A DNA stretch of 40,621 nucleotides from Campylobacteraceae bacterium (GTDB taxonomy: Bacteria > Campylobacterota > Campylobacteria > Campylobacterales > Sulfurovaceae), in assembly GCA_027079365.1 (NCBI GenBank), contig JALWVW010000325.1:1-40621 (forward strand). Reading direction: 5' to 3'. The position numbers were made by a program, and so were the translations under genes. Positions 18,259-35,321 of this stretch are shown piece after piece. Within the stretch, counting starts at the first letter, position 1. The number at the start of each line of letters is the position of its first letter. The notes under the pieces are model-generated. The model had not been told where the DNA came from and made no database searches. It saw only the letters and a list, made by a program, of their open reading frames with translations.

Positions 18259-20718
18259 TTAGTCTTTGATGCACCTGACATTGATGCCATACATGGCATA
18301 CACCGCCTGCGCAGTAATATAGCTTACCGGGTACCCGGTATTTTTGGAGAACTGTAGACTCATAGGTTTGGATGTGCCGTTGTTGTCCAAGGTATTGGCA
18401 TAGACAGAGCCCCTTCTTGCTCTGGTGTCATTGGGGTTAAACAGTCCACGTGTCCTCTCTTCGCCAGAAGGAAGCTTCAAGAAACTTTCAAAGACAGCAG
18501 AAGCATCTATGAGCCCTACTGATATCGTTTCGAGACGCAGTTCATTTATACTTGGTACTCTGTATCCTGTCGGACATATAGAACTACCGTCTGTTTTGGC
18601 CCATCTCTCCATCCGTCTTGTCCCGTTAGCATCATCTGTTGTCCAATCGGAAGCACCAATATCCTTGATGAAAAATTTCAATCCTGGATGATCAATATCG
18701 GCGATAGGTGTTTTCGTATATCTGGATGTCGGTATCTGATGTCCGTCTGTTCCTCTGCCCCATTGATAGTAGTCCCCAAAGCAGCTTGCGTCATCATAAC
18801 TTGTGCATAGACGAGAGGCTCCGAGATTTCTGTCAAGCCATACTCTGCCTGTATGCGGCGAGATGACAGTACCATATCCTATACCATTGTGTGTCATCTC
18901 TATGGTTTCATCTGCATCAAGTATGTTGATTGTGATAGTCTGTCTCGTTTCCTGCATGGTAGCATCTGTGACTATGGCGACAAAGCTGTAGGTTGTTTTC
19001 CCGCTTTCAAAGTCTGGAAGATCGATAAAGGTCACCACTCCTGTCTGGCTGTGCACCTGAAATAGGGAGGCATCATCTCCCTCCAGTGTATAGTGAACAT
19101 AGGTTTCTGAAGCAGCATGCAGTGTCATGGCTATACTGCTGTTTTCGAGTACATTTACTGAGCTTGGCGATGTGAATGCCAGTGGTATTTCAGCATTGTT
19201 GTCTAATATTTTGACTGTAACATTTTGTTCCCCTCTGTTTCCGCTGCTGTCTGTAGCGACTGCGGTAAAATGATAGCTAGGCTTCTGTTCATAATCAGGT
19301 GTATTCTCAAACTCTACTACACCAGTCAATGCATCTATACTGAAGCTGCCAGCATCGGTACCTTCTATGGTAAAGTGTAATGCACTCTGGTCAGTAGCGA
19401 CAACAGTAAATGAAGCTGAAGTATTATTCTCCTTGACTTGGAAAGTTGAAGGAGAGGTGAAGACCGGTATTTGTGTATCAGGAATATGCTGTATGCACCG
19501 TATGGGAAGCCCTCTGCTTCTTACTGCATTGTCCTTATAGGCTCTGCTACTGAGAAAACTCAGGTGCATAGCATGTGATCCCTCTACTGAGTTGACCCAC
19601 AGTGAAGCGACAGCCCCCGGATACACTGTACCGTCTCTATAGGCTCTATATCCGGAGGAGGGTAGCTTCAAGAAGCTTGCAAATGCGGCCAGATTAGAGT
19701 TTGTGGGGCTTTGCAGTGCGGTGGTTTCTGCCTCCAGTTCTTTCAGGATAGGTACCCTGAAGCCAGCAGGACATACCGTACTGCCATCTGTCATTGCCCA
19801 GACTGACTGGCGCAATACCCCCTCGGTGTCTGTACTGAGCCAGTCAGCGCTACCAGTGACAAAATTATCACTGCTCGCAGTAAGTTCGTCTTCCTGAGTC
19901 TGTGTTGTTGCAGAGGATGCCGTCTCGTGTCCGTCTGCCATTCTTCCCCATTGAAAATAATCTCCATAGCAGCTGATATCATCATGGGCAATACAGTCAA
20001 AGGAGGCACCAATATTTCTGTCCAGCCATACTCTGCCTGTGTGGGGTGAAACAACAGTATTGTACTCTGTATCACGATATATGATCTCTGCACTCTCTTC
20101 TCTGTCCAGGATAGTGATGGTGATAAGTACCTGTACACTTATAACGCCGGATGCATATTCTGCTGTAGCATAAAACTGATAAGATCTTTTCCGCTCATAG
20201 TCTGGTGCTTTGCGAAATACTACCAGACCTGTAGTTGTATTGAGGTCAAAGTATTTTGTATCTAGATCATAGATGTGGTAGTAGACCGTATCTTTACCTA
20301 TGGCAAACAGTTTAATAGCCGTTATGTTGTTCTCGTAGACACTTACGTTATTTTCGGAGATCATAATGGGAATATCGATGACAAGCTTAAATTTATCGAT
20401 GAGAGATTGTATTTTGTCACTGTTGTTGACATCCTCTGCTGTCAGTCCGCTTATGATGCGGTTGATATCCTCCAGATTCTCCTCATCGACACCTGAGACA
20501 CCCGCATCTCGATAATCCTGTACTTGAGGGATATCAGAATTGCTGCCGTTGCTTATGGCATATACTTTGATCTTCCCTATGGCTGTCTCCCGGACTTCTC
20601 CCTGTGAGGGCTGGTGTGTGCTGCTGTTCTCGTCCAGATCTATGCCGCCACCACAGGCGGTCAGTGCGATAGCAACTGCTGCTGCGGCAAGTAAGTCTCT
20701 TATTTTGGCTGAGATCAT
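18259..20718 (-). CDS. large lipoprotein: cadherin-like repeat, FISUMP, two cadherin-like repeats, FISUMP
   Basis: Lipobox IALTAC. Three cadherin-like repeats, for example FQVKENNTSASFTVVATDQSALHFTIEGTDAGSFSIDALTGVVEFENTPDYEQKPSYHFTAVATDSSGNRGEQNVTVKILD. Two FISUMP domains (VWLDRNIGAS...CYGDYFQWGR...CPAGFRVP...LPIRCIQH and VWLDRNLGAS...CFGDYYQWGR...CPTGYRVPS...INVRCIKD). AAAGGAG RBS. Confidence 0.85.
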   Translation of the reverse strand: MISAKIRDLLAAAAVAIALTACGGGIDLDENSSTHQPSQGEVRETAIGKIKVYAISNGSNSDIPQVQDYRDAGVSGVDEENLEDINRIISGLTAEDVNNSDKIQSLIDKFKLVIDIPIMISENNVSVYENNITAIKLFAIGKDTVYYHIYDLDTKYFDLNTTTGLVVFRKAPDYERKRSYQFYATAEYASGVISVQVLITITILDREESAEIIYRDTEYNTVVSPHTGRVWLDRNIGASFDCIAHDDISCYGDYFQWGRMADGHETASSATTQTQEDELTASSDNFVTGSADWLSTDTEGVLRQSVWAMTDGSTVCPAGFRVPILKELEAETTALQSPTNSNLAAFASFLKLPSSGYRAYRDGTVYPGAVASLWVNSVEGSHAMHLSFLSSRAYKDNAVRSRGLPIRCIQHIPDTQIPVFTSPSTFQVKENNTSASFTVVATDQSALHFTIEGTDAGSFSIDALTGVVEFENTPDYEQKPSYHFTAVATDSSGNRGEQNVTVKILDNNAEIPLAFTSPSSVNVLENSSIAMTLHAASETYVHYTLEGDDASLFQVHSQTGVVTFIDLPDFESGKTTYSFVAIVTDATMQETRQTITINILDADETIEMTHNGIGYGTVISPHTGRVWLDRNLGASRLCTSYDDASCFGDYYQWGRGTDGHQIPTSRYTKTPIADIDHPGLKFFIKDIGASDWTTDDANGTRRMERWAKTDGSSICPTGYRVPSINELRLETISVGLIDASAVFESFLKLPSGEERTRGLFNPNDTRARRGSVYANTLDNNGTSKPMSLQFSKNTGYPVSYITAQAVYAMYGINVRCIKD

Positions 20719-20865
20719 CTTTTCTCCTTTATAAAAAGTTATATATAGAAATTATATATGTTAATTTGTGACATGGATGTAACAGATGTATTTCTCAGCA
20801 TTGCATTGACTGAAGGGTAGACAAGACACCTTTTTATCCTTTAACACAGTTTTCATAGATACAGC

Positions 20866-20893
20866 ATGGCACAAGAGTGTCACGAAGTGTCAT
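20866..20893 (-). promoter_or_regulatory. 28-bp conserved operator-like element (copy A) upstream of the 819-aa lipoprotein gene
   Basis: ATGGCACAAGAGTGTCACGAAGTGTCAT matches 26 of 28 positions at 22796-22823. It contains GTGTCA direct repeats 10 bp apart (20877, 20887) plus an inverted arm ATG(G/A)CAC. It lies in the 271-bp gap between the TSP3 gene stop and the next gene start. Confidence 0.55.
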
Positions 20894-20938
20894 TGTGGGG
20901 AAATGTGTTGAGGGGGTTAAGGTGTACTTTGGGATGGT

Positions 20939-20972
20939 CAATACACTAGCCACTATACTGGCTAGTGTATTG
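20939..20972 (-). terminator. perfect 13-bp stem, 8-nt loop hairpin just downstream of the TSP3-repeat gene
   Basis: CAATACACTAGCC-actatact-GGCTAGTGTATTG begins 18 nt after the stop at 20990. No U-tract follows on the transcribed strand, so this may be a terminator, an attenuator or an mRNA-end stabiliser. Confidence 0.35.
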
Positions 20973-20989
20973 GGGAAGCGTACTTTGGT

Positions 20990-22726
20990 TTATTGTACGG
21001 TTGGATCGGTTGGGGCAGTATCTGTGTTATCAGGCACGCCATCACCGTCTGTATCTGCTTTGAGAGGGTCAGTTTCTCCGGCATCGACTACACCGTTGGC
21101 ATTGATATCCTCTGCACCATCAGGCAGACTATCACCATCCGTATCTGCCACTCTCGGATCGGTTTCTCCTGCATCAACGGTTGCGTTATTGTTTCTGTTT
21201 TCCTGTCCGTCACTCATACCATCACTATCCGTATCGAAATTCGTCGGGTCAGTACCCATCTGGAACTCTATGAGGTTGGCGACACCATCACCATCTGCGT
21301 CTTTCATGTCATCTGTAGTGCCGGTTGCACCAGTATCTGAAAGTGTGTCATTGGTTCCCAGCAGTGTCTCTTGAGCCAGTGTGAGCCCATCACTATCACT
21401 GTCATCAGCGCCATTGGTTACAGGATCATTAGGATTATTCGGATTGGTGCTAAATGTGGTCACTTCTGCACCATCACTAAGACCATCTCCATCGCTGTCT
21501 GCATTGGTCGGACTTGTACCGCCCAGTACCTCTTGCGCATTGGTGAGTCCATCATGGTCATCGTCATTGGCACCATTTGCTGTAGGAGAGTTGGCATCCA
21601 GCGGATTGGTAGGTGGTGTGGCTGCGATCTCTGCAGCATCAGTGATACCGTCATTGTCGTCATCTGGATCAATATTGTTACCCAGACCATCACCGTCGGT
21701 GTCTCTCCAGTCAGCTGCATTGAGTGGGAAGGCATCATTGGTGTCTGCAATACCGTCACCGTCATCATCCAAGTCAAAGTAGTTGGTGATACCATCAAGA
21801 TCTGTGTCTGCACATTCACCGCTTACTGTTGGACTGTTGGCATCGCTGGGATTGCTGCTGATAGAGGCTTCAAAGGGGTCGCTTAGGCAGTCTCCGTCTG
21901 TATCAGCATATACCATATTGAGAGGATCAGTGTCGCTGCTGTCTGGGATGCCGTCATTATCGTCATCCATGTCAGCACCATCCATAGTGCCATCACCATC
22001 TGTGTCAGCATTTCCATTGGTCTGTGGAGAGTTGAAGTCTGTTGGATCACTGCCTGCTGCTGCTTCCTGCGCATTGGTAAGTCCGTCAGCATCTGCATCA
22101 GCGCCTCCATTGACCGTAGGTACATTCACATCTGTAGGATCACTGTCCATACTATCGTTGAGTCCATCTCCATCTGTGTCGGGCACTGCAGCACTGGTGC
22201 CAGCCATGGCTTCCTGTGCATTGGTAAGTCCATCACCATCTGGATCTGCATCCCCAGCAGCTGTCGGATCATTTGCGTCATAAGGATTGGTTCCGTTTGT
22301 TGTCTCATCGGCATCACTGATTCCATCAAAGTCGCTGTCTGGTGATACCTGCACAGTGATCGTAACTGTAGCTGTATTGGAGCTGTCACCATCATCATCA
22401 TCAACGGTGTAGGTAAAGGTATCTGTACCTACAAAGCCGGAATTTGGGGTATAGGTGACCATACCAGCAGCTGTAGGTGCAGAGAGGCCACCACTGGCAG
22501 GTGTGCTTACGATCACCACAGTAGCCGCATCGACAGTGCCATCACTGTCTGTGTCATTGGCTACTACATTGATCGCAACAGCAGTACCAGCAGAGGTGGT
22601 TGCTGTATCGTTGGCAGCTACAGGTGCAATGTTGCCACCACCGCCACCGCCGCCACCGCCACCGCCACAGCCGGTTAGTATCAGCATGCTTGATGCAATG
22701 GTCGAGAGAAGTATATGATTTTTCAT
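20990..22726 (-). CDS. lipoprotein with cadherin/Ig-like N-domain and many thrombospondin type-3-like Ca-binding repeats
   Basis: Lipobox ILTGC followed by 11 Gly. VAANDTATTSAGTAVAINVVANDTDSDGTVD...FTYTVDDDDGDSSNTATVTITV is an adhesin-type beta domain. More than 15 DxDxDGxxDxxD units follow (DTDGDGLNDSMD, DDDNDGIPDSSD, DSDGDGLSDGAE, DTDGDGVPDNTD...). Confidence 0.85.
   Translation of the reverse strand: MKNHILLSTIASSMLILTGCGGGGGGGGGGGNIAPVAANDTATTSAGTAVAINVVANDTDSDGTVDAATVVIVSTPASGGLSAPTAAGMVTYTPNSGFVGTDTFTYTVDDDDGDSSNTATVTITVQVSPDSDFDGISDADETTNGTNPYDANDPTAAGDADPDGDGLTNAQEAMAGTSAAVPDTDGDGLNDSMDSDPTDVNVPTVNGGADADADGLTNAQEAAAGSDPTDFNSPQTNGNADTDGDGTMDGADMDDDNDGIPDSSDTDPLNMVYADTDGDCLSDPFEASISSNPSDANSPTVSGECADTDLDGITNYFDLDDDGDGIADTNDAFPLNAADWRDTDGDGLGNNIDPDDDNDGITDAAEIAATPPTNPLDANSPTANGANDDDHDGLTNAQEVLGGTSPTNADSDGDGLSDGAEVTTFSTNPNNPNDPVTNGADDSDSDGLTLAQETLLGTNDTLSDTGATGTTDDMKDADGDGVANLIEFQMGTDPTNFDTDSDGMSDGQENRNNNATVDAGETDPRVADTDGDSLPDGAEDINANGVVDAGETDPLKADTDGDGVPDNTDTAPTDPTVQ
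22634..22666 (-). repeat. (GGY)11 trinucleotide tract encoding the poly-Gly linker after the lipobox Cys
   Basis: The plus strand reads gcc acc acc gcc acc gcc gcc acc gcc acc gcc, and codon positions were checked against the start at 22726. It gives an in-frame run of 11 Gly directly after Cys20. Confidence 0.9.
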
Positions 22727-23614: not shown

Positions 23615-24997
23615 CTAAATGGTTGGTGGTATCATAGTGGAGAGGTTGGTAGGTATCTTGAGTGTAAAGCATGCACCTTCTGCTGTATTGGCAGCATACA
23701 GTCCTCCTCCCATATTGTGCTCTATAATGATCTTGGCGATATAGAGCCCCAGTCCGGTGCCCCCTGACTTGTTTTTGGTCGTATAGTAAGGGTTAAATAT
23801 CTTCTCCAGGTGCTCCAAGGCAATACCCCTGGCATTGTCATTGATCTCCAGCCATAGGGTATCTGATTTTTCATGGATCGTGATGTAGATTTTCTTTTTA
23901 TTGATCTCTCTGGTCTCTAGCGCCTCTTTGGCATTGTCCAGGAGGATGATCAGCACCTGTATCAGTTCATTCTTATAACCATAGATAGAGACTCGATACG
24001 GGTTTTGTACCTGTATATCGACCTCTTTTAGGGTGCCGGACATGAGCTTGAGTACCATGCGGAGCGCTGTGTGTATATCAAACTGTTGTTTCTGTTTTTT
24101 GGGCGTAAAAAGACCTCGAAAATCTTCGATGGTTTGTGACATATGGGTAGTAAGGTCGGAGAGCTCGTCTATCTTTTGTGTCAGGTATTTTTGATGTTTA
24201 CCCTCTGAGACACGGTCTATGTTGAGCAAGATGGCATTAATATTCATTAGTGGTTGTCGCCATTGGTGCGCAATGGAGTCGATCATTTCTCCCATGCTTG
24301 CCATGCGGCACTGGCGCAAGAGCATCTGCTCCTGTGCCAGCCTCTGGTTGACCTCCATCTCTACGCGTTGCTGTAGTGCTGCATTGAAGTGCGTGAGCTT
24401 CTCGGTCTTTTGTGTTACTTTTTGTTTCAGCTCTTGATTGTAGCGTACAAGGCGACGTTTCTCTGCCTCTTTAACCTGTTCGTAGGTGTACATCACAAAG
24501 GTAGTGATGAGAAATGCAGCGATCAATGTGACATATTCTGCCAGTGTATAGGGGTAGCCTGTGATAAGAAGATAGAAAATAAAGAGGCACACCATGACAA
24601 ACATGATCGTACCCCCAGTTCTGTTCAGGAAGAAAAAGATCAGGATAGGTGCAGAAATCACCCAGAGGATATTGAGATGATTCTGAGGAACATAAAAGAA
24701 AATCACCGCAGTGTAGCTAAAGAAAAGGATCATAAACCAGATAGAGTAGGCCTGATAGAGCCCTTTGTCATGTCTTAGTCTGAAAAATCCACCCAGTAGG
24801 AAGATACCCAGAAGGAGCTGACTAATGCCGACAATTAGGTTCCCCTCTCTTAGTCTAAACAGAGAAAAGGCAAGTACCCCCAACCCAAAGAAGAAGGAAA
24901 TGATCAGAATGGCAAAAATCTGGTGTTTGAGTATCCATTCTGTCTCATCAAACTGTTCTGATGATGAAAAAAACTGTATGAACTTCCGGAAGAGCAT
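23615..24997 (-). CDS. membrane sensor histidine kinase (multi-TM sensor, HisKA plus HATPase)
   Basis: About 6 TM helices in the first roughly 190 aa, then a coiled coil. H-box MGEMIDSIAHQWRQPL, N-box LIILLDNAKEAL, G-box TGLGLYIAKIIIE. It lies upstream of the regulator and is co-directional with it. Confidence 0.88.
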   Translation of the reverse strand: MLFRKFIQFFSSSEQFDETEWILKHQIFAILIISFFFGLGVLAFSLFRLREGNLIVGISQLLLGIFLLGGFFRLRHDKGLYQAYSIWFMILFFSYTAVIFFYVPQNHLNILWVISAPILIFFFLNRTGGTIMFVMVCLFIFYLLITGYPYTLAEYVTLIAAFLITTFVMYTYEQVKEAEKRRLVRYNQELKQKVTQKTEKLTHFNAALQQRVEMEVNQRLAQEQMLLRQCRMASMGEMIDSIAHQWRQPLMNINAILLNIDRVSEGKHQKYLTQKIDELSDLTTHMSQTIEDFRGLFTPKKQKQQFDIHTALRMVLKLMSGTLKEVDIQVQNPYRVSIYGYKNELIQVLIILLDNAKEALETREINKKKIYITIHEKSDTLWLEINDNARGIALEHLEKIFNPYYTTKNKSGGTGLGLYIAKIIIEHNMGGGLYAANTAEGACFTLKIPTNLSTMIPPTI

Positions 24998-25102
24998 CTG
25001 TTTGCCTTATTATAAATAATTATGTTTTAAAAGTATATTTCACAATATATCAAAATAGTTTTAAATAAAGACTAAAAAATGAAATTTGTCTGTACTGTTT
25101 AG

Positions 25103-27556
25103 GTGCACAGAAACTCTTTTGCAGTATACTTTTGTACCAAATTCCCTAAAAGACTAGCCGTGAACAGTATCAATGATTTTTTTTATACAGCCTGGAGTAG
25201 TGAGCCGGTATGTGCCATCTCCTCTGATCTCGAAGATAATCTTCTCAGTAGACTTCATGCGCAGGAGTATGATAGCTTTTGTGACAGGGCAGCCATGATA
25301 CTTTCGCTCTCCGCCTCCAATAGAGAGAAGTTTTTGCAGATTGCACCATTGGTGGAGAGTCTAAAGATTTTCTCTGAATATCCTAGTCAGAAGTTCGAGA
25401 GCACCGCAGAGATCTCTGCGGTGCAGTGTCGTTTGCTCTCCTATCTGATCAGTCAAGGCAACCCCATACTGAACAAGGCAATAGGGCAGAGGCTGGATGC
25501 ACTCCGAAAAGGCGGTGTCATAGGATATGATACTGCCAGAAAGCTTATCTCTATCCTGACACTTATTCCGGAGAAGCAAAAACAGAAGTCTCAGATACCC
25601 CAAATCCCTCTCGAGGATAGGGAAGTACATAGTGAAAAAGACAAAGATACGGTGCTGACATCCCAGGCGATAGCAGATGTGATGCTGTGGCTACAGGATG
25701 CCATAGAGATACCACAACTGAGGGAGAGACTAGCGAAGGTACCGGAGAAGATCAGGGCACAACGATTCTCTATCGGAGTGACAGGGGTAATGAATGCGGG
25801 AAAATCTACCATGCTTAATGCCTTGCTGGGTGAAGAGATCCTGGGGACAGCAGTGGTACCGGAAACTGCCAATCTAACACTTATCAAGTATGCATCAAAG
25901 CCCAAGGCAAAGGTGTATTTCTGGAGTGAGAAGGAGTGGCAGCAGATAGAGCGTAGCGCTGAGGTGCTGGCACCGATGCAGCACTTTGTAGAGCAGACAA
26001 GGGCACAGTTTGGCTCAGCATTGTCAGACTATATCACCCCAGAAGGCAGGGGAGAGGAGATAGCCGTAGAGGCACTTCCTTCCTATACCTCTGCCGCACA
26101 CTCTGAGGGGCGGTGTAATCTGGTCAAAAGTGTGGAGCTCTTCAGTGATCTGGCATGGGTGCAGGGGGGTGTGGAGATCGTAGATACACCGGGACTGGAT
26201 GATCCTGTCGTGCAGCGCGAAGAGATTACCAAGTCTTATCTGGCAGAGTGTGATCTGCTCTGTCATCTGATGAATGTGGGGCAGTCTGCGACGCAGAAGG
26301 ATGTGGAATTTATCATTGAGTCTCTGCTATACCGCAATGTAGCTCAGCTGCTGGTGGTAATCACCCGGATAGATATGGTGAGCGAAGAGGAGCTCTCTGA
26401 GGTGATCGCCTATACCAAGTCCAGTATCAAAGCCAGGCTGGAAGCACTGGAGCAGGGGGCGAGGTTTGATGCATTGGTGGCGCGCATTGTGTTTATTCCT
26501 ATTGCCGGAAAGATGGCACTGTGGCACCGTATAGGGCGGGCAGAGGAGGCACTGGCGCAGGGGTATGACCTGAATAAAAGTGGTATCGTGAAGATCGAAG
26601 CCTATCTCGATGAGGTGCTTTTCGGAGAGAACGCCCCCAAGGTAAGACTGATGATGGAGGCATCCCGCAAGGAGCTTCTGCAACTCATCCAGAGTCAGGA
26701 GAGGGCATACCGACAGGAGCAGAGACTCCTGAGCCAAAGTGCAGAAGAGATCGAAGCAGCCTATGTGCGCTATCAGGAGGAGCAGAAGCAGTCCCAAAAA
26801 GCAGACAAGAAGCTGCATCAGGAAATCGCACTCGCCAGGCATGAGCTGGAGAGCCACTTCGGACTGTTGCAAAAAGCCGCAAGCGAGAAGTTTCGCTCGC
26901 TTCAGAATCTGCTGACGAGACGGATCATGGATGATGTGCGTTATAGCCTAAGAAAAGAGAAGAAAAAGCCACTGCCCCAAAGGGTTGAAACGATGATTCA
27001 GACAGGGCTACAGGATGGATTGATCGACCTTTTGAGGGAATATCGCTATGGCTTCCAGAAGCGCATGAATCTGCTGCTGGAGAGAATGGCGAGAGAGTTT
27101 GAGGCTTTTTCGCAGACAGCAGAGGCGGAGACGCAGGAGAGCGCTAAGGCACTTTTTGAGAAGTACTTTGATCTGCTTTCGCTGACAGACTCTCATGCAG
27201 TACTGACTGCACAGACTAATCAAATAATCGCCAAGTCTTCTCCAAAGAGGTTGGAGGAATTGGAGGGACAGATACAGCAGGCATTTGCAGAGGCACTGGA
27301 GATTCTGGAAGAGAAGTTTCAGGCGCGCGTCACAGTACTCAATGGTGATCTGATTGAGGCATTTGAAATACGCTATAAGCAGCCACTGCTTAGGGCGGCC
27401 GAGGAGCGCGAAGCGCAGGAGAGCTTGTTGAAAAAATCTCTACAGAGAGTGCGAGAGAGCAGGTATGATGCCAGGGAGAGGATGCAACAGATAGAGAGAC
27501 AATTGATACTGCTTGCCCAGTCAGTAAGGCATCTGGATGCAGGAGGAGAGAGATGA
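25103..27556 (+). CDS. bacterial dynamin-like protein, DLP1-type (start codon uncertain)
   Basis: G1 GVTGVMNAGKST (25775-25810), G2 region PETANLT, G3 VDTPGLDD, G4 TRID, followed by a long E/Q/R/L-rich helical stalk. The listed start is GTG with no clear RBS; alternatives are GTG 25160 or a later ATG. Confidence 0.85.
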   Translation: MHRNSFAVYFCTKFPKRLAVNSINDFFYTAWSSEPVCAISSDLEDNLLSRLHAQEYDSFCDRAAMILSLSASNREKFLQIAPLVESLKIFSEYPSQKFESTAEISAVQCRLLSYLISQGNPILNKAIGQRLDALRKGGVIGYDTARKLISILTLIPEKQKQKSQIPQIPLEDREVHSEKDKDTVLTSQAIADVMLWLQDAIEIPQLRERLAKVPEKIRAQRFSIGVTGVMNAGKSTMLNALLGEEILGTAVVPETANLTLIKYASKPKAKVYFWSEKEWQQIERSAEVLAPMQHFVEQTRAQFGSALSDYITPEGRGEEIAVEALPSYTSAAHSEGRCNLVKSVELFSDLAWVQGGVEIVDTPGLDDPVVQREEITKSYLAECDLLCHLMNVGQSATQKDVEFIIESLLYRNVAQLLVVITRIDMVSEEELSEVIAYTKSSIKARLEALEQGARFDALVARIVFIPIAGKMALWHRIGRAEEALAQGYDLNKSGIVKIEAYLDEVLFGENAPKVRLMMEASRKELLQLIQSQERAYRQEQRLLSQSAEEIEAAYVRYQEEQKQSQKADKKLHQEIALARHELESHFGLLQKAASEKFRSLQNLLTRRIMDDVRYSLRKEKKKPLPQRVETMIQTGLQDGLIDLLREYRYGFQKRMNLLLERMAREFEAFSQTAEAETQESAKALFEKYFDLLSLTDSHAVLTAQTNQIIAKSSPKRLEELEGQIQQAFAEALEILEEKFQARVTVLNGDLIEAFEIRYKQPLLRAAEEREAQESLLKKSLQRVRESRYDARERMQQIERQLILLAQSVRHLDAGGER

Positions 27557-29565
27557 CACTGCTCGATCAGTTTATCGCTGCCTACCATGCAAAGTTTGCT
27601 GCGCCTGTTTCCCAGTTCGATACCACACTTTCAGGATGGGTAGAGAAGAGTAGTCATTTGCTGCTGGATGAGAAATTCTCTCCGCCCCCTGAGCTCAAAG
27701 GGAGACTTACGCAACTGTTAGCGCGTACCAAGGAACCCATGAAGGTAGCAGTCACAGGGCAGTTTTCCAGTGGTAAATCCACCTTTCTCAACGCACTGCT
27801 CTCCAAAAATGTACTGCCCACAGGGATCACACCGGTGACCTCCAAGGTCAACTACATCCGCTACGGTGATGCGTATAAGATGCGTATCCACTACAAGGAT
27901 GGAAGGGACGAATACCAGGATATCGCGCATATCGCCCGCTTCACAGATCAGCGTACTGAGGTAGAAGAAATCGCCTATCTGACACTCTATGCACCCCTTG
28001 AGTTACTCAAGGAGATCACCTTTGTTGATACGCCGGGGCTCAATTCCCAGGAAGAACGAGATACGACAGAGACACAAAAAGTCCTCCGAGAGGTGGACGG
28101 GATCATCTGGCTCTCACTGATAGACAATGCAGGCAAACTCAGTGAAGCACAAACGCTGGAGAAATATCTGGATCAGTATCAGGAGAAGTCTCTCTGCGTA
28201 TTGAACCAAAAAGACAAATTTACAGAGGCACAGGTTGCGCAGAGTGTCGCCTATGTGCAAGAGCATTTTGCTACATTCTTCTCTGAGGTCGTGCCTATCT
28301 CCGCCAAGCAGGCGCTGCTTGCACGAAGTCATGACAAGGTTCAGATGCTTGAGGAGAGCAAAGAAGCGTTTTTGTCCTCGCTGGATGAAAAGATCGACAG
28401 AGTAGAGCCTATGGAGATCCAGTCGGAGTATGAAAAATACCGCAAAAAAGTGCAAGAGATCCGCTCCGGTGACCTCTCTCAAAATAGTGTATTGCTTGAA
28501 GCCTCTAATATACAACGCGTCCTCTCCTTTATAGAGACACAGATCAGGCCAGTCGCTGACTCTGCCAAGGTATTTTCTATCAAGCGTGAAGTGGTGCAGA
28601 TTTGTACAGAGATCATCAGTCAACACCAGCTTTTTTTGCGTATCTATGACGAGCTCTCTATGCAGCTTCAGGCATTTGAAGAGGAAGCAGAGGAGGCGTT
28701 TGCACAGCTCAAGCAGCAGTTTGGTAAAAAACTTCAGGATGCTTATGCGCAGATAGAGGCGATGATCGCTGTGATTGCTGAGGATATCTATACCCATATC
28801 CATACAGTGGATCGTACACGCTATGTACCCAAAAAGAGTGGCATACTTAAAAAAGAGATACTGTATGAGGCCATATCTTACCAGCGTGCCAAAATTGACG
28901 CAGACCGGGTTTACAAGCATCTCTTTTATGAAGATGATGTGGTGGGTAAGCGCTTCAAGCACTATGTCAGAGGCCTCAAAGAGATCCAGCACGAGGTCAA
29001 TCAGCACAATGCCGAGGTCTACGAGATGCTCAAAAGACGAATACGCCAGTGGCAAACCCCTTATGAGCTTCTGCGCAAGCAGAATCCTGTGCACTCCTAT
29101 ATCGAGTTTGCTAATATCCGGAAGTTTGCCTCCAAGGCCTATGAGCATATACTCAAACCTTTTTCTGATGAGATTCATAGCTCTTATGCCCAGATCAGCT
29201 CGGAATTCAACCATCTTAGCTCTGCGGTACACTTCAACTATCAGAATGCCACGCAGGTGACTGTCGCCTTTTTGGAGCAGAAGATCGAGCAGTCAGCGAG
29301 CCTGTATGAGCAGGATCCGGCACGCTTCACCTGCTATACGCCCAAGCTTGAGGAGATCAAAGAGCGATTGGGGAGCAACTTTCATCTTTACGAGTTGCAG
29401 AATATGATGCAGGGGAACACAACCTTTTTGAGTAAAAATTATGATACACTCATGCGAGAATTTAAAGCGATCAAGCAGGAGAGGGAGTCCTTCATACAGC
29501 AGAGAAAAGTGCGACATGAAAAGACAATCGCCCTGCTTGAAGCGCATATCAAGGAACTAGGCTAG
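27553..29565 (+). CDS. bacterial dynamin-like protein, DLP2-type
   Basis: G1 GQFSSGKST (27757-27783), TPVTSKV, G3 VDTPGLNS, G4 NQKD, and a helical stalk. The start overlaps the DLP1 stop (ATGA). Confidence 0.9.
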   Translation: MTLLDQFIAAYHAKFAAPVSQFDTTLSGWVEKSSHLLLDEKFSPPPELKGRLTQLLARTKEPMKVAVTGQFSSGKSTFLNALLSKNVLPTGITPVTSKVNYIRYGDAYKMRIHYKDGRDEYQDIAHIARFTDQRTEVEEIAYLTLYAPLELLKEITFVDTPGLNSQEERDTTETQKVLREVDGIIWLSLIDNAGKLSEAQTLEKYLDQYQEKSLCVLNQKDKFTEAQVAQSVAYVQEHFATFFSEVVPISAKQALLARSHDKVQMLEESKEAFLSSLDEKIDRVEPMEIQSEYEKYRKKVQEIRSGDLSQNSVLLEASNIQRVLSFIETQIRPVADSAKVFSIKREVVQICTEIISQHQLFLRIYDELSMQLQAFEEEAEEAFAQLKQQFGKKLQDAYAQIEAMIAVIAEDIYTHIHTVDRTRYVPKKSGILKKEILYEAISYQRAKIDADRVYKHLFYEDDVVGKRFKHYVRGLKEIQHEVNQHNAEVYEMLKRRIRQWQTPYELLRKQNPVHSYIEFANIRKFASKAYEHILKPFSDEIHSSYAQISSEFNHLSSAVHFNYQNATQVTVAFLEQKIEQSASLYEQDPARFTCYTPKLEEIKERLGSNFHLYELQNMMQGNTTFLSKNYDTLMREFKAIKQERESFIQQRKVRHEKTIALLEAHIKELG

Positions 29566-30528
29566 ATGTTAAAAAGTTTTTTTTGGGTAAAAGAGTGGGC
29601 TCTGTGGGCTTGGGGTGGCGCACTGCTGCTGACAGCAATGATCTGGACACAGGTAGAACTGACAGTCAAGCTCAATGAATGGTACGGCAGGTTTTACAAT
29701 ATTCTCCAAAAAGCGGAGGATATCGATGCTTTTTGGAGAAGTATGCAGGAGTTTGCCTATATTGCCCTTTCGCTGATCGCACTGGCAGTAGCGATCTACT
29801 ATTTTACGCAGCACTATGCTTTTCGCTGGCGTGAGGCAATCACCTATTACTATCTGCCGCTTTGGGAGGCTCAGGAGGGCAATATCGAAGGCTCCTCCCA
29901 GCGTATCCAGGAGGATACCTACAGCTTTTCTCGCAGTCTGGAGAGTCTGGGGTTGGGGATGTTCCGTGCGATTCTGACCCTGATCGCCTTTATCCCTATC
30001 CTCTGGGAACTTTCCAAGAAGATCACGATCCCCTGGCTGCAGGTCTATGAGGGCTCACTGGTCTGGATCGCACTGTTGACCTCGCTTGGTGGGATGCTGG
30101 CCTCTTATCTGGTAGGCATCAAGCTACCAGGGTTGGAGTACGAGAATCAAAAGGTAGAAGCCGCCTATCGAAAGAAGCTGGTCTATGGAGAGGATGAGGG
30201 CGTGCACCGGGATTTGCCAACACTCTTCGAGCTCTTTACCGGACTCAAGCGAAACTATTTTCGCATGTTCAACCACTATTCCTACTTTACCCTCTGGAGT
30301 GCGATGTATGGACAGGTGATGATCATCGTACCATACTTACTGATGGGGCCTTCGCTTTTTGCTGGTGTGGTAGCATTGGGAGTCGTCACACAGACTGGTA
30401 ATGCCTTTGGCAAGGTCAATGACAGCTTCTCTTATCTTATTGATCATTGGACAGAGATTACCAAGTTTATTTCTGTTATCAAGAGACTGAAGGAGTTTGA
30501 AGGACATCTTCTTGTGGAAGAAGCCTAG
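29566..30528 (+). CDS. SbmA/BacA-like inner-membrane protein (short, 320 aa)
   Basis: Compared with E. coli SbmA as I recall it, there are long matches: [12 protein letters not shown] vs [23 protein letters not shown] vs [23 protein letters not shown] vs IEGAAQRVQEDT, and [28 protein letters not shown] vs [28 protein letters not shown]. The ATG immediately follows the DLP2 TAG. Confidence 0.85.
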   Translation: [320 protein letters not shown]

Positions 30529-30552
30529 ATCGGTCTTTAAGGATACCCTTTA

Positions 30553-30574
30553 TTTCATTTTCATTTCATTTTCA
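30553..30574 (+). promoter_or_regulatory. two perfect tandem 11-bp repeats TTTCATTTTCA upstream of the cytochrome c operon
   Basis: Units lie at 30553-30563 and 30564-30574, ending 40 nt before ATG 30614. The same core TCATTTTCA recurs three times at 33371-33403. The 11-bp period is typical of OmpR/PhoB-family binding sites. Confidence 0.55.
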
Positions 30575-30613
30575 TCTTCTATACTTCGGACACCACAACA
30601 TAAAGGAAAGAAA

Positions 30614-30916
30614 ATGAAAAAGATTATTTTTGGTCTAGGAATGAGTCTCGTAGGTGTGTCATTGATGGCATCAAGTGGTGAGCAGTTGGCACAAAAGTGT
30701 GTGGCTTGTCATGGCAGTGATTTTGCCAAAGCACCACTGGGTGAGACAAGACATGTCGTGAGTAAGGACAGCAAAGCAAAAATCATCAAAATGCTCAAGT
30801 ACTATAAGCACCCGGAAGAAGCAGATGAAAAGGTCATGCAGACACAAATCATGAATTACAGTGATGAAGATATCACAAAGGTGGCAGAATATATCGTCAA
30901 ACTTCGTAAAAAATAG
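30614..30916 (+). CDS. small periplasmic class I cytochrome c (c553-like)
   Basis: I prefer ATG 30614 (AAAGGAAAG RBS). It has a signal peptide MKKIIFGLGMSLVGVSLMA, a single CVACH haem site, a distal Met region VMQTQIM, and totals 100 aa. Confidence 0.88.
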   Translation: MKKIIFGLGMSLVGVSLMASSGEQLAQKCVACHGSDFAKAPLGETRHVVSKDSKAKIIKMLKYYKHPEEADEKVMQTQIMNYSDEDITKVAEYIVKLRKK

Positions 30917-30930
30917 CCAAAAGGAAAAGA

Positions 30931-31356
30931 ATGAAGGTGAAAATTGTTGTAGCAGGCATCATTATATTTGGATTGATGCAGTTGGTGCCTTATGGACGTG
31001 ACCACAATAACCCACCAGTGGTCAGTGAAGTGCACTGGGATACACCTCAAACCAAAGTACTGTTTACTAAGGCCTGTGCAGATTGTCATAGCAATCTGAC
31101 CAAATGGCCCAGCTATAGCAGTGTGGCACCAGTTTCATGGCTTGTTACGCATGATGTGGATGAGGGTAGAGAGCATTTAAATGTCTCTGCGTGGGGCAAA
31201 CAGAAGAAAAACAAAGGAAAAGATGCCGCTGAAGAGGTGAAAGAGGGCGAAATGCCACCGGCGATCTATACAGTGATGCATCCAGAAGCGAAGCTCAGTG
31301 ACCAAGAAAAGGCTGCATTGGTAAGAGGGCTCAAAGCAACTTTTGGAGAAGATTGA
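30931..31356 (+). CDS. haem-binding-domain (Haem_bd family) membrane-anchored protein
   Basis: N-terminal TM, then CADCHSNLTKWPSYSSVAPVSWLVTHDVDEGREHLNVSAW ... EGEMPPAIYTVMHPEAKLSDQEKAAL. This is the characteristic pattern of that family. Confidence 0.8.
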   Translation: MKVKIVVAGIIIFGLMQLVPYGRDHNNPPVVSEVHWDTPQTKVLFTKACADCHSNLTKWPSYSSVAPVSWLVTHDVDEGREHLNVSAWGKQKKNKGKDAAEEVKEGEMPPAIYTVMHPEAKLSDQEKAALVRGLKATFGED

Positions 31357-31385
31357 CTAGTTATAGATTCAGAAGAGGAACAGCA

Positions 31386-32042
31386 ATGAAGCTACTTATC
31401 GTAGAGGATGATCAGGCTATTCTCACCTTTCTCAAAAGAGGATTCAGCGAGGATGGCCATGTCGTAGATACAGCAGAAAATGGCGCAGATGGTGAGTATC
31501 TGGCAATGATGTACTCTTATGATGTGATTGTTTTGGACTGGATGCTTCCGGAGAAAACAGGTATCCAGATGATAGAAGCGCTCAGGAGCGAACAGATACA
31601 GACTCCAGTGATCCTCTTGACAGCCAAAGGTGAAATAGAGGATAAGATAGAAGGCTTGCGTGGAGGTGCGGATGACTATCTCGTCAAGCCTTTTTCCTAT
31701 GCAGAGCTTTTGGCTCGTGTGGAAGCCTTGCATCGTAGAGTGACCTCTGATGGTAGTAATGTAATGACTCTGGGTGATGTGACCGTTGACACCTATGCCA
31801 AAACAGTTTCACTACAGGGGCAAGTGCTTTCCATGACAAAAAAAGAGTATGAGCTGCTGCTGTTCTTGATGCAGCACAAGGATCGTATCGTATCCAGTCG
31901 TATGATCGAAGAGCAGTTGTGGAGTCAGGAGTCTTATATCAACAGTAATGTCATACAGGTCACCATCTACACTCTTAGAAAAAAAGTTGGCAAAGAGAAG
32001 ATCAAAAGCTACCGTGGTATGGGATATAAATTTGAAGTATAG
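31386..32042 (+). CDS. OmpR-family response regulator, CusR/CopR-like
   Basis: MKLLIVEDDQ..., VIVLDWMLPEKTG, VILLTAKG, GADDYLVKPFSYAELLARVEAL, and winged helix LTKKEYELLLFLMQH...YTLRKKV...GMGYKF. I prefer ATG 31386 over the track's TTG 31353. Confidence 0.9.
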   Translation: MKLLIVEDDQAILTFLKRGFSEDGHVVDTAENGADGEYLAMMYSYDVIVLDWMLPEKTGIQMIEALRSEQIQTPVILLTAKGEIEDKIEGLRGGADDYLVKPFSYAELLARVEALHRRVTSDGSNVMTLGDVTVDTYAKTVSLQGQVLSMTKKEYELLLFLMQHKDRIVSSRMIEEQLWSQESYINSNVIQVTIYTLRKKVGKEKIKSYRGMGYKFEV

Positions 32043-33360
32043 AAGTATCAAAAGAGAAGTTTTAGTATGGTTTGGTATGATACTGTTTGCCGTGCTTCTG
32101 TTTTTCGGTCTGCTTTTTTACTATTTTTTCAACCAAGGCGTCTCTCGCTCACTGCTCAATGATATGCATGCCAAGGCGGAGTATATCAAAGTAGCAGTGC
32201 TTCCCTATCTCAACACGCCTGAAAAAATAGATGCACATGCTGTTCACTATGCCTATGCTATTCTCAAAAAAGGGCAGATTCTTTATCAAACCGATGATTT
32301 TCATGTCGACGAGATAGATACGCTCCAAGAAGATGATAAACTTGTCTTCAGGACAGATGAGGGATATCAAAATGCTATCTATGTCATGGAAGTTGACAAG
32401 CCGATCCAAGCCTATATCGTGGTAGTTGCGTACCACATCGATGATGAGATGGAAGATATCGTAGACCTGCTTCTATGGATTATCCCGATACTTTTTTTGC
32501 TGCTCCTCTGGGTGGCTTCACGCTTGATCGACAAAGTACTTACGCCAGTCAAAGCACTCTCTTCTCAGGCAAGCCATATTCATGTCGATCGCCTGGTAGC
32601 TTCGCTGGATGAGGGATCAGAGTATAAGGAGACGGCAGAACTCAACAGGACTTTTAATGCCATGATAGTACGGCTAGAGCAGGGAGTATCACAGCTCAAC
32701 CGTTTTAACAGTGATGTCTCGCACGAGCTGAGAACCCCTCTGACTGCCATCAGAGGGGAGATAGAGACTGTCTTGAGGCATCCTCGGGACGAAGCCTATT
32801 ATCGTAAGAGCATGGAGAGCATCCTCTACGAGACAGGGCAGATAGAGGCGATTGTAGAGAATTTACTGGCTTTAAGTAGGTATGACAAAGAGAGTTTCTC
32901 TCAAAGCTACGAGGCAGTAGAGCTCTCATCGTTGCTTCTGGGTGTACTGGAGCAATATGCACAGAAAATAGGAGAGAAAGAGATCAAGGTGGACATCAGA
33001 TGTTTGGAGCCGATAGTATATACCTGCAACAAGCATCTTGTCGCTACTGTATTTTCCAATTTGTTGGATAATGCATTGAAATACTCCCCTGATAAGTGCA
33101 CGGTAAGACTCTCTCTTTGCATGGAAGCGGAGAAGCCTGTCTTTAGTATTGAAGATGAGGGGAGCGGCATCCCTGAGGAGGATCTAGAGAGGATCACGGA
33201 GCGCTTTTACAGAGTTGATCAGTCGCGTACACGCCAGATCAAAGGATTTGGACTAGGGCTCTCTATCGTCAAAAATATTCTTGATCTGCATGGTGCTCTT
33301 CTGGATATCAGATCAGAGGTAGATAGAGGCACGATGGTGCGTGTGGTATTTCCAAAATAG
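32032..33360 (+). CDS. sensor histidine kinase (two TM, periplasmic loop, HAMP, HisKA, HATPase), CusS-like
   Basis: H-box FNSDVSHELRTPLTAIRGEIE, N-box VFSNLLDNALKYSP, G-boxes DEGSGIPEEDL and GFGLGLSIVKNI. The start is uncertain: I chose in-frame TTG 32032, which overlaps the regulator stop by 11 nt. The ORF is open from 31948. Confidence 0.85.
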   Translation: MKYRSIKREVLVWFGMILFAVLLFFGLLFYYFFNQGVSRSLLNDMHAKAEYIKVAVLPYLNTPEKIDAHAVHYAYAILKKGQILYQTDDFHVDEIDTLQEDDKLVFRTDEGYQNAIYVMEVDKPIQAYIVVVAYHIDDEMEDIVDLLLWIIPILFLLLLWVASRLIDKVLTPVKALSSQASHIHVDRLVASLDEGSEYKETAELNRTFNAMIVRLEQGVSQLNRFNSDVSHELRTPLTAIRGEIETVLRHPRDEAYYRKSMESILYETGQIEAIVENLLALSRYDKESFSQSYEAVELSSLLLGVLEQYAQKIGEKEIKVDIRCLEPIVYTCNKHLVATVFSNLLDNALKYSPDKCTVRLSLCMEAEKPVFSIEDEGSGIPEEDLERITERFYRVDQSRTRQIKGFGLGLSIVKNILDLHGALLDIRSEVDRGTMVRVVFPK

Positions 33361-33370
33361 TCATCTTGGA

Positions 33371-33403
33371 TTTCATTTTCAAATCATTTTCAATTCATTT
33401 TCA
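33371..33403 (+). promoter_or_regulatory. three tandem 11-bp repeats (TTTCATTTTCA / AATCATTTTCA / ATTCATTTTCA) upstream of the multihaem cytochrome gene
   Basis: The array starts 11 nt after the kinase stop and ends 37 nt before ATG 33441. It shares its core with 30553-30574. Confidence 0.55.
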
Positions 33404-33440
33404 GAAGTTAGAATATCCTATCTGATAGAAGGAGATGAAA

Positions 33441-35321
33441 ATGAAAGTAAAATATACGGTATGGATACTACTAAGCAGCGTGGCACTAATGAGTGGATGC
33501 GGCGGGGCTGCTGCAGGAGGAGATAGGGGGAATACTGTAATTTCTGGCGGTACAGATGGGGGAAATGCAGATAACAATAATGGTTCAAATGGCAGCAAGG
33601 ATGAAGGAAGCTCTGGAAATGATGAGAACTCTGGAAATGAAGGAAACTCTGGAAAAGATGGGAGCTCTGAAGGTGATGGAGGCCCTGGAAGCGATGGGAA
33701 CTCAGAAAATGATGGAGGCTCGGGAGATACTGGGGGTAGTGGTGGAGGTGCTACGGTCTCCAATGGGTATATGCTTACTGCCTGGAATGATCTTGGTATG
33801 CACTGCATGGACGGCAATGACTTTTCTGTATTCTCGGTGCTCCCTCCCTTTAACAATCTGCATGCACAACTCAAGGATAAAAATGGAGACTTGGTTACCT
33901 CCGGTGTAACTTTGACCTATGAGTCGACAGTAGGCACAGATGGTAAAATCAATACGACCAGTGCGGATAAAACAAACTTTTGGGACTTTAGCCGTAAACT
34001 TTTCCCCCATTCTAATCTCACAGCTGATGTGGGACTGCTCGGCAACAAAACACCAGGTACAACACCGCAGGCACTTACATTCGATACCAAAGAGAAGTGG
34101 TGGAAAGCAGAAGGACTACCGCTAACACCTTACAATGATGATCTGACAAAGAACTACTATCCGCTTGTAAAAGTTACCGCAAAAGATAGCAGTGGCGCTG
34201 TACTTGCGACAGCAAAAGTCGTTCTTCCTGTGAGTGATGAACTTGATTGTAAGCGTTGCCATGCCAGTGGTGCCCCTGCGGTAAAAGCAAAGCCAAATGC
34301 TGGATGGGTGAATCGTGCAGATCCTGAAAAGGATTTCAAATTTAATGTGCTCCGCTTGCATGATGAGCGTATGCCAAATGTAGTGAAAGACCACAGTGCT
34401 GAACTCGCAGCAAAAGGATATACCTATGATCCCGCAGGGCTCGAAGCTACAGCTCAGGCAGGTACGCCTATCTTGTGTGCTGCCTGTCACAGTTCCAATG
34501 CACTGCCAGGCACAGGTGTAAGCGGTGTCAAGTCCTTCACTCAGGCGATACACAGCTATCATGCCAAAGTAGTCGATCCCTTTACAAATCTAGCGATGAA
34601 CGATAGCACCAACAGAGATTCTTGCTATGCCTGCCATCCAGGCTCTAGTACTCAGTGTCTCAGGGGTGCTATGGGTGATGCCAAGGATAGCAGTGGACAA
34701 AACAGCATGCAGTGCCAAAGCTGCCATGGTACGATCTCTCATGTGGGAGATGGACAAAGAAAAGGGTGGCTGGATGAGCCAAATTGTCAGGCTTGCCATC
34801 ATGATGGCAAGCGAGAAGTCACAGCCATTGATCCTGTCAGCAACACACTTAGAAGTGTAGTTGATACCAAGTTTGCAACCAATCTCAATACCCCGGCAAC
34901 AGGCATCAGTCTCTATAGATTCAGTACGGGGCATGGCAAACTACAGTGTGAGGCCTGTCATGGCGCCACCCATGCGATCTATCCTGCCCACAATGCTGAT
35001 AACATCCTAAGCCAAGGTGTTCAGGGGCACACAGGCACGATAGCAGAATGCACTGCTTGTCACAGTACTGTTCCCAATACTGTTACAGGAGGGCCTCATG
35101 GTATGCATCCGGTCGAACAATCGTGGGTCGGCGGTCACAAACATGTGGCAGAAAGAAATGCTGCACAGTGTAAAGTTTGTCATGGACAAAATTACAGAGG
35201 ATCCTCTTTATCCAAGATGTTTACAACACGCGCACTCTCGGTGGAGCATGGCACAAAAACCTTCTCAAAAGGACATCAGGTCTCCTGCTATGACTGCCAT
35301 AACGGTCCTAGCGGAGACTAG
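33441..35321 (+). CDS. lipoprotein multihaem cytochrome c (9 CxxCH motifs) with a haem-free N-terminal domain
   Basis: Lipobox ALMSGC, then a G/S/N/D/E-rich linker and a roughly 150-aa haem-free region (YMLTAWNDLGMHCMDGNDF...). Nine haem motifs follow: CKRCH, CAACH, CYACH, CQSCH, CQACH, CEACH, CTACH, CKVCH and CYDCH. I prefer ATG 33441, 6 nt after AGGAG, over 33435. Confidence 0.88.
   Translation: MKVKYTVWILLSSVALMSGCGGAAAGGDRGNTVISGGTDGGNADNNNGSNGSKDEGSSGNDENSGNEGNSGKDGSSEGDGGPGSDGNSENDGGSGDTGGSGGGATVSNGYMLTAWNDLGMHCMDGNDFSVFSVLPPFNNLHAQLKDKNGDLVTSGVTLTYESTVGTDGKINTTSADKTNFWDFSRKLFPHSNLTADVGLLGNKTPGTTPQALTFDTKEKWWKAEGLPLTPYNDDLTKNYYPLVKVTAKDSSGAVLATAKVVLPVSDELDCKRCHASGAPAVKAKPNAGWVNRADPEKDFKFNVLRLHDERMPNVVKDHSAELAAKGYTYDPAGLEATAQAGTPILCAACHSSNALPGTGVSGVKSFTQAIHSYHAKVVDPFTNLAMNDSTNRDSCYACHPGSSTQCLRGAMGDAKDSSGQNSMQCQSCHGTISHVGDGQRKGWLDEPNCQACHHDGKREVTAIDPVSNTLRSVVDTKFATNLNTPATGISLYRFSTGHGKLQCEACHGATHAIYPAHNADNILSQGVQGHTGTIAECTACHSTVPNTVTGGPHGMHPVEQSWVGGHKHVAERNAAQCKVCHGQNYRGSSLSKMFTTRALSVEHGTKTFSKGHQVSCYDCHNGPSGD
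33609..33734 (+). repeat. seven imperfect tandem 18-bp (hexapeptide) repeats inside the cytochrome linker
   Basis: In-frame units encode SSGNDE, NSGNEG, NSGKDG, SSEGDG, GPGSDG, NSENDG and GSGDTG. DNA units follow the pattern AACTCTGGAAATGAAGGA. Confidence 0.85.

Follow-up and report, generated by a model that had tools for sequence, protein, structure and literature searches.

A 40,621-nt stretch of DNA from a Campylobacteraceae bacterium (Sulfurovaceae, a Sulfurovum of hydrothermal vents; contig JALWVW010000325.1), referred to here as the window, carries three genes which, according to its list of open reading frames (ORFs), lie head to tail on the plus strand with zero spacers. They encode two dynamin-like GTPases, termed DLP1 and DLP2 (dynamin-like protein), and a short transporter of the SbmA/BacA family. 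We consider this arrangement to be probably a known DLP1-DLP2 operon followed by a lineage-specific, likely co-transcribed transporter gene, and not an obligate three-protein machine. Comparison with related loci argues that the trio is a local gene order, repeatedly lost, rather than a new system. In full-text literature on dynamin-like proteins together with SbmA nothing relevant was found, and the trio has not been described there.

Conservation of the DLP pair and distribution of the transporter gene

Tight packing as such needs no test against chance. The question is whether the gene order is conserved, and only close relatives conserve it. Relatives were collected from both sides of the locus. 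From the transporter side, 80 genome loci holding a short SbmA-like gene were sampled (L001-L080). From the DLP2 side, 158 loci (78 genome and 80 metagenome loci) were obtained by an alignment-based scan, which was needed since no match was found when genome contigs were scanned with the single DLP2 protein. Most of the relatives are metagenome contigs or metagenome-assembled genomes (MAGs), and absences on short contigs as well as statements at the level of a MAG (L002 with L083, see below) carry some risk.

The pair itself is strongly conserved. DLP1 was located directly upstream of DLP2, or was cut by the contig end, at all genome loci (78/78) and all metagenome loci (80/80). An identical ATGA overlap of stop and start codon was present in 87 of the 142 loci holding both DLP genes. 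Among the remaining loci with a nearby in-frame ATG, nearly all DLP1/DLP2 junctions ranged from -13 to +7 nt. Behind DLP2, a convergent gene for a 346-aa permease came next in 50 of 136 loci, so that the pair appears normally to be a two-gene unit, its operon ending after DLP2.

The third gene follows a different distribution. Dynamins were found within 10 kb of the short SbmA-like gene in only one of the 80 genome loci (L005, a Sulfurovaceae MAG). No universal neighbour of this gene was found across the 80 loci, its contexts being lineage-specific. Behind DLP2, the SbmA-like gene was observed only in one Sulfurovum sublineage, in eight lineages: the window, L005/L082/L166, L245, L246, L159 (cut by the contig end), L160/L161, L162/L163 and L249. 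It was missing from this position in four further lineages of the Sulfurovum clade (L087, L083, L247 and L248) and absent from every Sulfurospirillum, Sulfurimonas and Arcobacter locus examined. In L087, DLP2 is directly followed by a homologue of the arginine-kinase-like gene that lies at 35399-36430 in the window, and the locus looks like an empty site.

In a neighbour-joining tree of DLP2, L083 and the L247/L248 pair were nested inside clades of carriers. This nesting implies at least two losses of the SbmA-like gene behind DLP2, as judged from this tree. The L005 branch of the tree was not used, and L005 was placed from the identity matrix instead. L002 encodes an SbmA-like protein that is 95% identical to that of L163 and is preceded by a gene for a repeat protein, not by DLP2; L002 and L083 belong to the same MAG. 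An earlier note on this DNA had proposed that co-occurrence of the DLP pair with the SbmA-like gene be profiled across Campylobacterota, and had named lack of synteny in other genomes as the outcome that would speak against its three-part module. Synteny was indeed present, in one Sulfurovum sublineage; elsewhere it was lacking.

Junctions, flanks and gene histories

The junction between DLP2 and the SbmA-like gene varies among the carriers. Both genes abut in the window, L160 and L159, they overlap by 8 nt in L005 and L245 and by 4 nt in L246, and they are separated by a 47-nt spacer in L249. In L162/L163, ~660 nt containing RelB/YafQ lie between them. This toxin-antitoxin module was located at 1284-1798 in L162, where the toxin is intact (88 aa), and at 4534-4907 in L163, where only a 41-aa remnant of the YafQ toxin was called.

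The two genes also differ in their sequence relationships. Between the window and L160, the SbmA-like proteins are 94% identical and the DLP2 proteins 70%, while between L160 and L005 the respective values are 69% and 81%. Because these identities disagree, they suggest gene-scale recombination at or near the DLP2/SbmA-like junction among Sulfurovum lineages. The losses, the 47-nt spacer, the toxin-antitoxin insertion and these incongruent histories do not agree with the proposal of the earlier note, a three-part module in which the SbmA-like gene is hard-wired as the third.

The carriers have different flanks on either side. Upstream lies a gene for a histidine kinase, for MutY, for a cadherin-like protein or for a Peptidase_M48 protein. 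Behind the SbmA-like gene stands a block of cytochrome, Haem_bd, two-component and multihaem genes, a Y1 transposase gene, or a Lipoprotein_15/two-component block. L005 and L245 share the cytochrome/two-component block of the window at this position, and L160 and L249 do not. Since the flanks differ among carriers, the slot behind DLP2 is apparently a variable region. In L160, a Y1 (IS200/IS605-type) transposase gene is located directly downstream of the SbmA-like gene (11095-11613), which fits a variable, recombination-prone slot behind DLP2. A joint arrival of the SbmA-like gene with the cytochrome/two-component block, first prompted by the direct join of DLP2 to the arginine-kinase-like gene in L087, was considered and ruled out, as only the transposase stands behind the SbmA-like gene in L160 and a different block in L249.

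These flanks also bear on the idea that the SbmA-like gene is functionally tied to the genes that come next, which encode a small periplasmic protein, a regulator of the OmpR type and a histidine kinase and, in the window, also haem proteins, the contact with DLP2 being incidental. In several lineages, the SbmA-like gene does have same-strand genes behind it that encode a small exported protein together with a response regulator and a kinase. For the window, L005 and L245, a cytochrome c or hypothetical protein comes first and then a Haem_bd protein, and in L162-L164 and L249 the exported protein is a Lipoprotein_15 protein. In addition, no terminator was found behind the SbmA-like gene. However, the two regulator/kinase sets resemble each other only at the level of paralogues (107 and 43 bits), the transposase immediately follows the SbmA-like gene in L160, and no neighbours of this kind accompany the short SbmA-like genes of other phyla. 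We therefore regard a tie to the downstream genes as quite improbable.

The dynamin-like pair

Both dynamin-like ORFs matched the Pfam model Dynamin_N (E 4.7e-26 for the first and 9.5e-34 for the second). In a search of the PDB, DLP1 as a single sequence matched 5owv_A with E 3.9e-70 and 240.5 bits, and the profile of its orthologues reached E 4.4e-95, spanning Cj-DLP1 residues 78-716; the cross-match of DLP1 to 5owv_C was far weaker (26.2 bits). DLP2 matched 5owv_C with E 1.8e-86 and 294.2 bits, compared to 36.2 bits for its cross-match to 5owv_A. Because these matches are specific and the cross-matches far weaker, the pair is by sequence the Campylobacterota orthologue of Cj0411/Cj0412 of Campylobacter jejuni, as the earlier note had supposed. 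The GTPase motifs are invariant in the alignments of orthologues, being GVMNAGKST (G1), DTPG (G3) and TRID (G4) in DLP1 and GQFSSGKST (G1), DTPG (G3) and NQKD (G4) in DLP2. The DLP2 orthologues are 55-88% identical across Sulfurovum, Sulfurimonas and Sulfurospirillum.

Cj-DLP1 and Cj-DLP2 assemble as a 2:2 heterotetramer, which can bind and tether liposomes and for which a role in membrane maintenance or repair is assumed (PMC6104087). The window pair resembles them (PDB 5OWV, 5OXF) in that two overlapping genes encode proteins with a Dynamin_N domain and intact G motifs in both. Like Cj-DLP1, DLP1 of the window extends N-terminally ahead of its GTPase domain. These ~200 residues are conserved in the orthologues; the profile, however, reaches back only to Cj-DLP1 residue 78. 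The N-terminal globular assembly domain of Cj-DLP1 comprises 119 aa (PMC6104087), and the first ~120 positions of the DLP1 profile could not be aligned by sequence to this domain. Identity of the window DLPs to the C. jejuni proteins is only moderate. A further difference concerns the third gene of the operon, which codes for an HcpA-like protein unrelated to SbmA in C. jejuni (cj0413; PMC6104087) and for an SbmA-like transporter in the window.

The earlier note had also brought in Eleos (LeoA/LeoBC), and the pair could be taken as an anti-phage system of this type with the transporter as an accessory. Eleos, DynA of Bacillus subtilis and the window pair are alike in being bacterial dynamin-like GTPases, paired or fused, at the membrane, and Liu et al. 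report a structural similarity of Cj-DLP2 to LeoA (PMC6104087). Weak PADLOC matches were obtained to LeoBC (31.7 bits for DLP1 and 49.5 bits for DLP2, with partial coverage of the model) and to LeoA (23.4 bits). However, the Leo matches are partial, that to LeoA covering only the P-loop region (residues 59-104), and the matches to Cj-DLP1 and Cj-DLP2 are far stronger and specific. The pair occurs at a chromosomal position conserved throughout the phylum, in all related Campylobacterota loci, in contrast to the patchy, island-like distribution of defence genes. In L159 and L246 it adjoins ftsA-ftsZ-mutY, and no defence genes were recognized with Pfam among the neighbours in the window. The link to Eleos thus comes down to weak generic dynamin similarity (23-50 bits, partial), and an anti-phage role of this type is highly improbable.

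The short SbmA-family transporter

The third ORF matched SbmA_BacA (PF05992) over its full length (E 1.3e-113), completing the check with Pfam models that the earlier note had proposed for the three genes. It scored 432.7 bits against NF009036/PRK12369 ("putative transporter"), above the curated equivalog cutoff of 385, with residues 1-315 corresponding to positions 1-322 of the 326 of the model. Escherichia coli SbmA (7p34) was matched with E 2.7e-74 over SbmA residues 81-393. An AF2 model of the protein (pLDDT 79) gave a TM-score of 0.85 to SbmA 9g3g_B at 41% identity. The assignment to the SbmA/BacA family is thereby borne out by family models as well as by the predicted fold.

Alignments of the protein begin at SbmA residue 81 to 85, so that ~80 N-terminal residues are absent. 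In SbmA, these residues make up the TM0 domain (TM0a/TM0b; PMC8442886). The 120 best homologues listed measured 244-345 aa, the full-length ones 317-345 aa, and included sequences from Sulfurovum, Thiotrichales, Hydrogenovibrio, Limnohabitans and Desulfobulbaceae, among others. As the NF009036 model has 326 positions and full-length homologues are of similar size, the short form is judged to be a family trait across NF009036, its normal length and not a truncation. The absence of ~80 residues relative to E. coli SbmA, pointed out in the earlier note, therefore holds as such, while it is no peculiarity of this gene, TM0 being absent family-wide. The NF009036 family spans Sulfurovum, Thiomicrorhabdus/Hydrogenovibrio, Limnohabitans, Desulfocapsaceae, Campylobacter concisus and Pelagibacterales. 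For these relatives the match at the protein level is complete and the length is the same; in other taxa they are not adjacent to dynamins. A TM0-less clade is not discussed in the structural and evolutionary papers on SbmA that were consulted.

The protein comprises the SbmA core TM1-6, a six-helix core of the type IV ABC-like kind, and ends after it, without a nucleotide-binding domain. In this it is like E. coli SbmA and Sinorhizobium BacA (SLiPT; 7P34, 9G3D-G). Ladder and gate residues were taken from published lists (PMC8442886, PMC13316013). Five of the six residues of the glutamate ladder are kept (E193, E203, E269, E276 and E287), and the position of E378 is occupied by a lysine (K300 here), as in 13 of 20 sampled family members. 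All gate residues are kept (Y116, R190, R280, K281, Y285, D288 and Y368). E203 and E287 are shared by the window protein and SbmA, and YddA lacks both. Differences to SbmA/BacA are the replacement of E378 and the lack of TM0, which is a hallmark of SLiPT in the structural papers. Since the core fold, the gates and most of the glutamate ladder are kept, the protein most probably acts, by analogy to SbmA, as a proton-coupled importer in the form of a homodimer.

A transporter that looks functional from its sequence and model could serve in a three-part module for envelope stress of the kind that the earlier note had proposed. In such a module, the importer would take membrane-active peptides out of the periplasm, in the way that BacA removes NCR peptides, the DLP pair would repair the inner membrane, and the genes would be co-expressed as all of them act on the same insult. 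BacA is indeed protective against antimicrobial peptides (PMC12912959), C. jejuni offers a precedent for a DLP operon whose third gene is envelope-related, and tight or overlapping junctions are kept in six of the eight carrier lineages despite different flanks. Against such a module stand the lack of synteny beyond one Sulfurovum sublineage, the losses within it (at least two), the toxin-antitoxin insertion between the genes in L162/L163 and the disagreement of the SbmA-like and DLP2 trees. Moreover, the SbmA-like family occurs overwhelmingly without dynamins nearby. Taken together, we judge a dedicated envelope-stress module to be rather unlikely.

Layout of the locus

The packing of the three ORFs described in the earlier note, with the ATGA overlap and a TAG directly followed by ATG, was confirmed by reading the sequence. 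All features are listed in Table 1. The overlap is preceded by the GGAGG-rich sequence GGAGGAGAGAG, and AAGGAA is located a few bases upstream of the ATG of the SbmA-like gene. Orthologues of DLP1 begin with MNIINDFFY, to which VNSINDFFY of the window corresponds in the alignment. The true start of DLP1 is for this reason most likely the GTG at 25160 (798 aa); the ORF does extend from 25103, as the earlier note had it, and only the start itself is to be moved.

Table 1. Features of the DLP locus in the window
Feature	Position	Strand	Basis or remark
Longest ORF of DLP1	25103-27556	+	817 aa counted from first GTG
DLP1, dynamin-like GTPase, orthologue of C. jejuni Cj-DLP1 (Cj0411)	25160..27556	+	Dynamin_N, 5owv_A, orthologue alignment
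DLP2, dynamin-like GTPase, orthologue of C. jejuni Cj-DLP2 (Cj0412), LeoA-like subtype	27553..29565	+	670 aa; Dynamin_N, 5owv_C
Short TM0-less SbmA/BacA-family transporter, NCBIfam NF009036/PRK12369	29566..30528	+	320 aa; SbmA_BacA, NF009036, 7p34
ATGA stop/start overlap, DLP1/DLP2	27553..27556	+	sequence read
TAG/ATG abutting junction, DLP2/SbmA-like gene	29563..29568	+	TAG 29563-29565, ATG at 29566
AT-rich intergenic region, presumed operon promoter region	24998..25159	.	between divergent histidine kinase gene and DLP1
Histidine kinase gene, divergent from DLP1	23615-24997	minus	
85-nt spacer, SbmA-like gene to next same-strand gene (cytochrome c)	30529..30613	+	
Cytochrome c	30614-30916	+	Pfam
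Haem_bd (PF14376) protein	30931-31356	+	Pfam
OmpR-type response regulator	31353-32042	+	Pfam
Histidine kinase downstream of SbmA-like gene	31948-33360	+	Pfam
MtrC/MtrF-like multihaem cytochrome	33435-35321	+	Pfam

No promoter call in the intergenic region ahead of DLP1 was better than chance. Scans for sigma-70 promoters, extended -10 elements and terminators gave results at chance level and are uninformative on an internal promoter. No terminator-like hairpin was found in the 85-nt spacer behind the SbmA-like gene. The same-strand genes at 30614..35321 are taken as downstream context, their membership in the operon being only putative. The locus was found in DNA sequencing runs (metagenomes) from hydrothermal vents, and no RNA-seq runs holding it were found.

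The neighbours in the window are two-component systems, cytochromes and surface proteins, as assigned with Pfam. The MtrC/MtrF-like cytochrome has a lipoprotein-like signal followed by a long low-complexity segment rich in Gly, Ser, Asn and Asp. It is grouped with the cytochrome c, the Haem_bd protein and the two-component system in a block that is conserved in L005 and L245. On the minus strand, two large surface-type proteins are encoded at 18259-22726. One has a cadherin domain; the other carries a lipoprotein-like signal followed by a run of 11 glycines, a Big_9 domain and numerous calcium-binding repeats of the bacterial TSP3 type. L159 and L246 have no such region between mutY and DLP1, so that it resembles an insertion ahead of the DLP operon.

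The gene at 35399-36430 (minus strand) encodes a two-domain ATP:guanido phosphotransferase (ATP-gua_PtransN and ATP-gua_Ptrans, E 6e-80). Phosphagen kinases of this kind are uncommon among bacteria. Its conserved position downstream of the DLP pair makes the gene a landmark in Sulfurovum, with homologues at 5039-6139 in L087 and 11851-12879 in L160. A 372-aa antisense ORF at 28114-29232 (minus strand) lies entirely within DLP2 and is regarded as non-coding, a shadow of the frame of DLP2.

Discussion

The data are best accommodated by a DLP1-DLP2 operon of the known type with a transporter gene behind it. Based on orthology to the C. jejuni proteins, the products of DLP1 and DLP2 would assemble into a membrane-binding and membrane-tethering 2:2 heterotetramer, and would presumably serve membrane maintenance or repair (PMC6104087). 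The ATGA overlap would fit joint production of both partners. An ancestor of the carrier sublineage of Sulfurovum may have acquired a short SbmA-family gene directly behind DLP2, in the variable slot between DLP2 and the conserved arginine-kinase-like gene. As it has no spacer of its own, the SbmA-like gene is most probably transcribed together with the DLP genes. Its adjacency to DLP2 would then reflect local ancestry and compact packing, and any functional link would be a loose co-expression of two inner-membrane-related functions.

Two observations weigh against this view. The order of the trio is kept in eight lineages despite different flanks on both sides, which could reflect selection for co-expression, and the junction is 0 nt or overlapping in six of these eight. 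A stronger form of this idea is that, in this Sulfurovum sublineage, the SbmA-like transporter came to work as a partner of the DLP1/DLP2 tethering complex, for example by co-induction under peptide- or phage-induced membrane damage, or even by docking the DLP complex at the inner membrane. We consider such a partnership unlikely; were it true, the trio would be the first dynamin system of bacteria in which an integral-membrane transporter is a dedicated component.

With the trio read as a DLP operon plus a local transporter gene, the position behind DLP2 varies within Campylobacterota, where it is taken by an HcpA-like gene in C. jejuni, by nothing in Sulfurospirillum and by an SbmA-like gene in some Sulfurovum. 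Of more use is a by-product, the TM0-less family. TM0-less relatives of SbmA make up a large uncharacterised family in vent Campylobacterota, sulfur-oxidising Gammaproteobacteria, Limnohabitans, Desulfocapsaceae and Pelagibacterales, and the existence of this family indicates that the TM0 domain is dispensable for persistence of the SbmA fold. Should the adjacency of the DLP pair and the transporter gene be functional, it would connect membrane repair with peptide uptake and thereby offer a way into what dynamin pairs do physiologically in bacteria.

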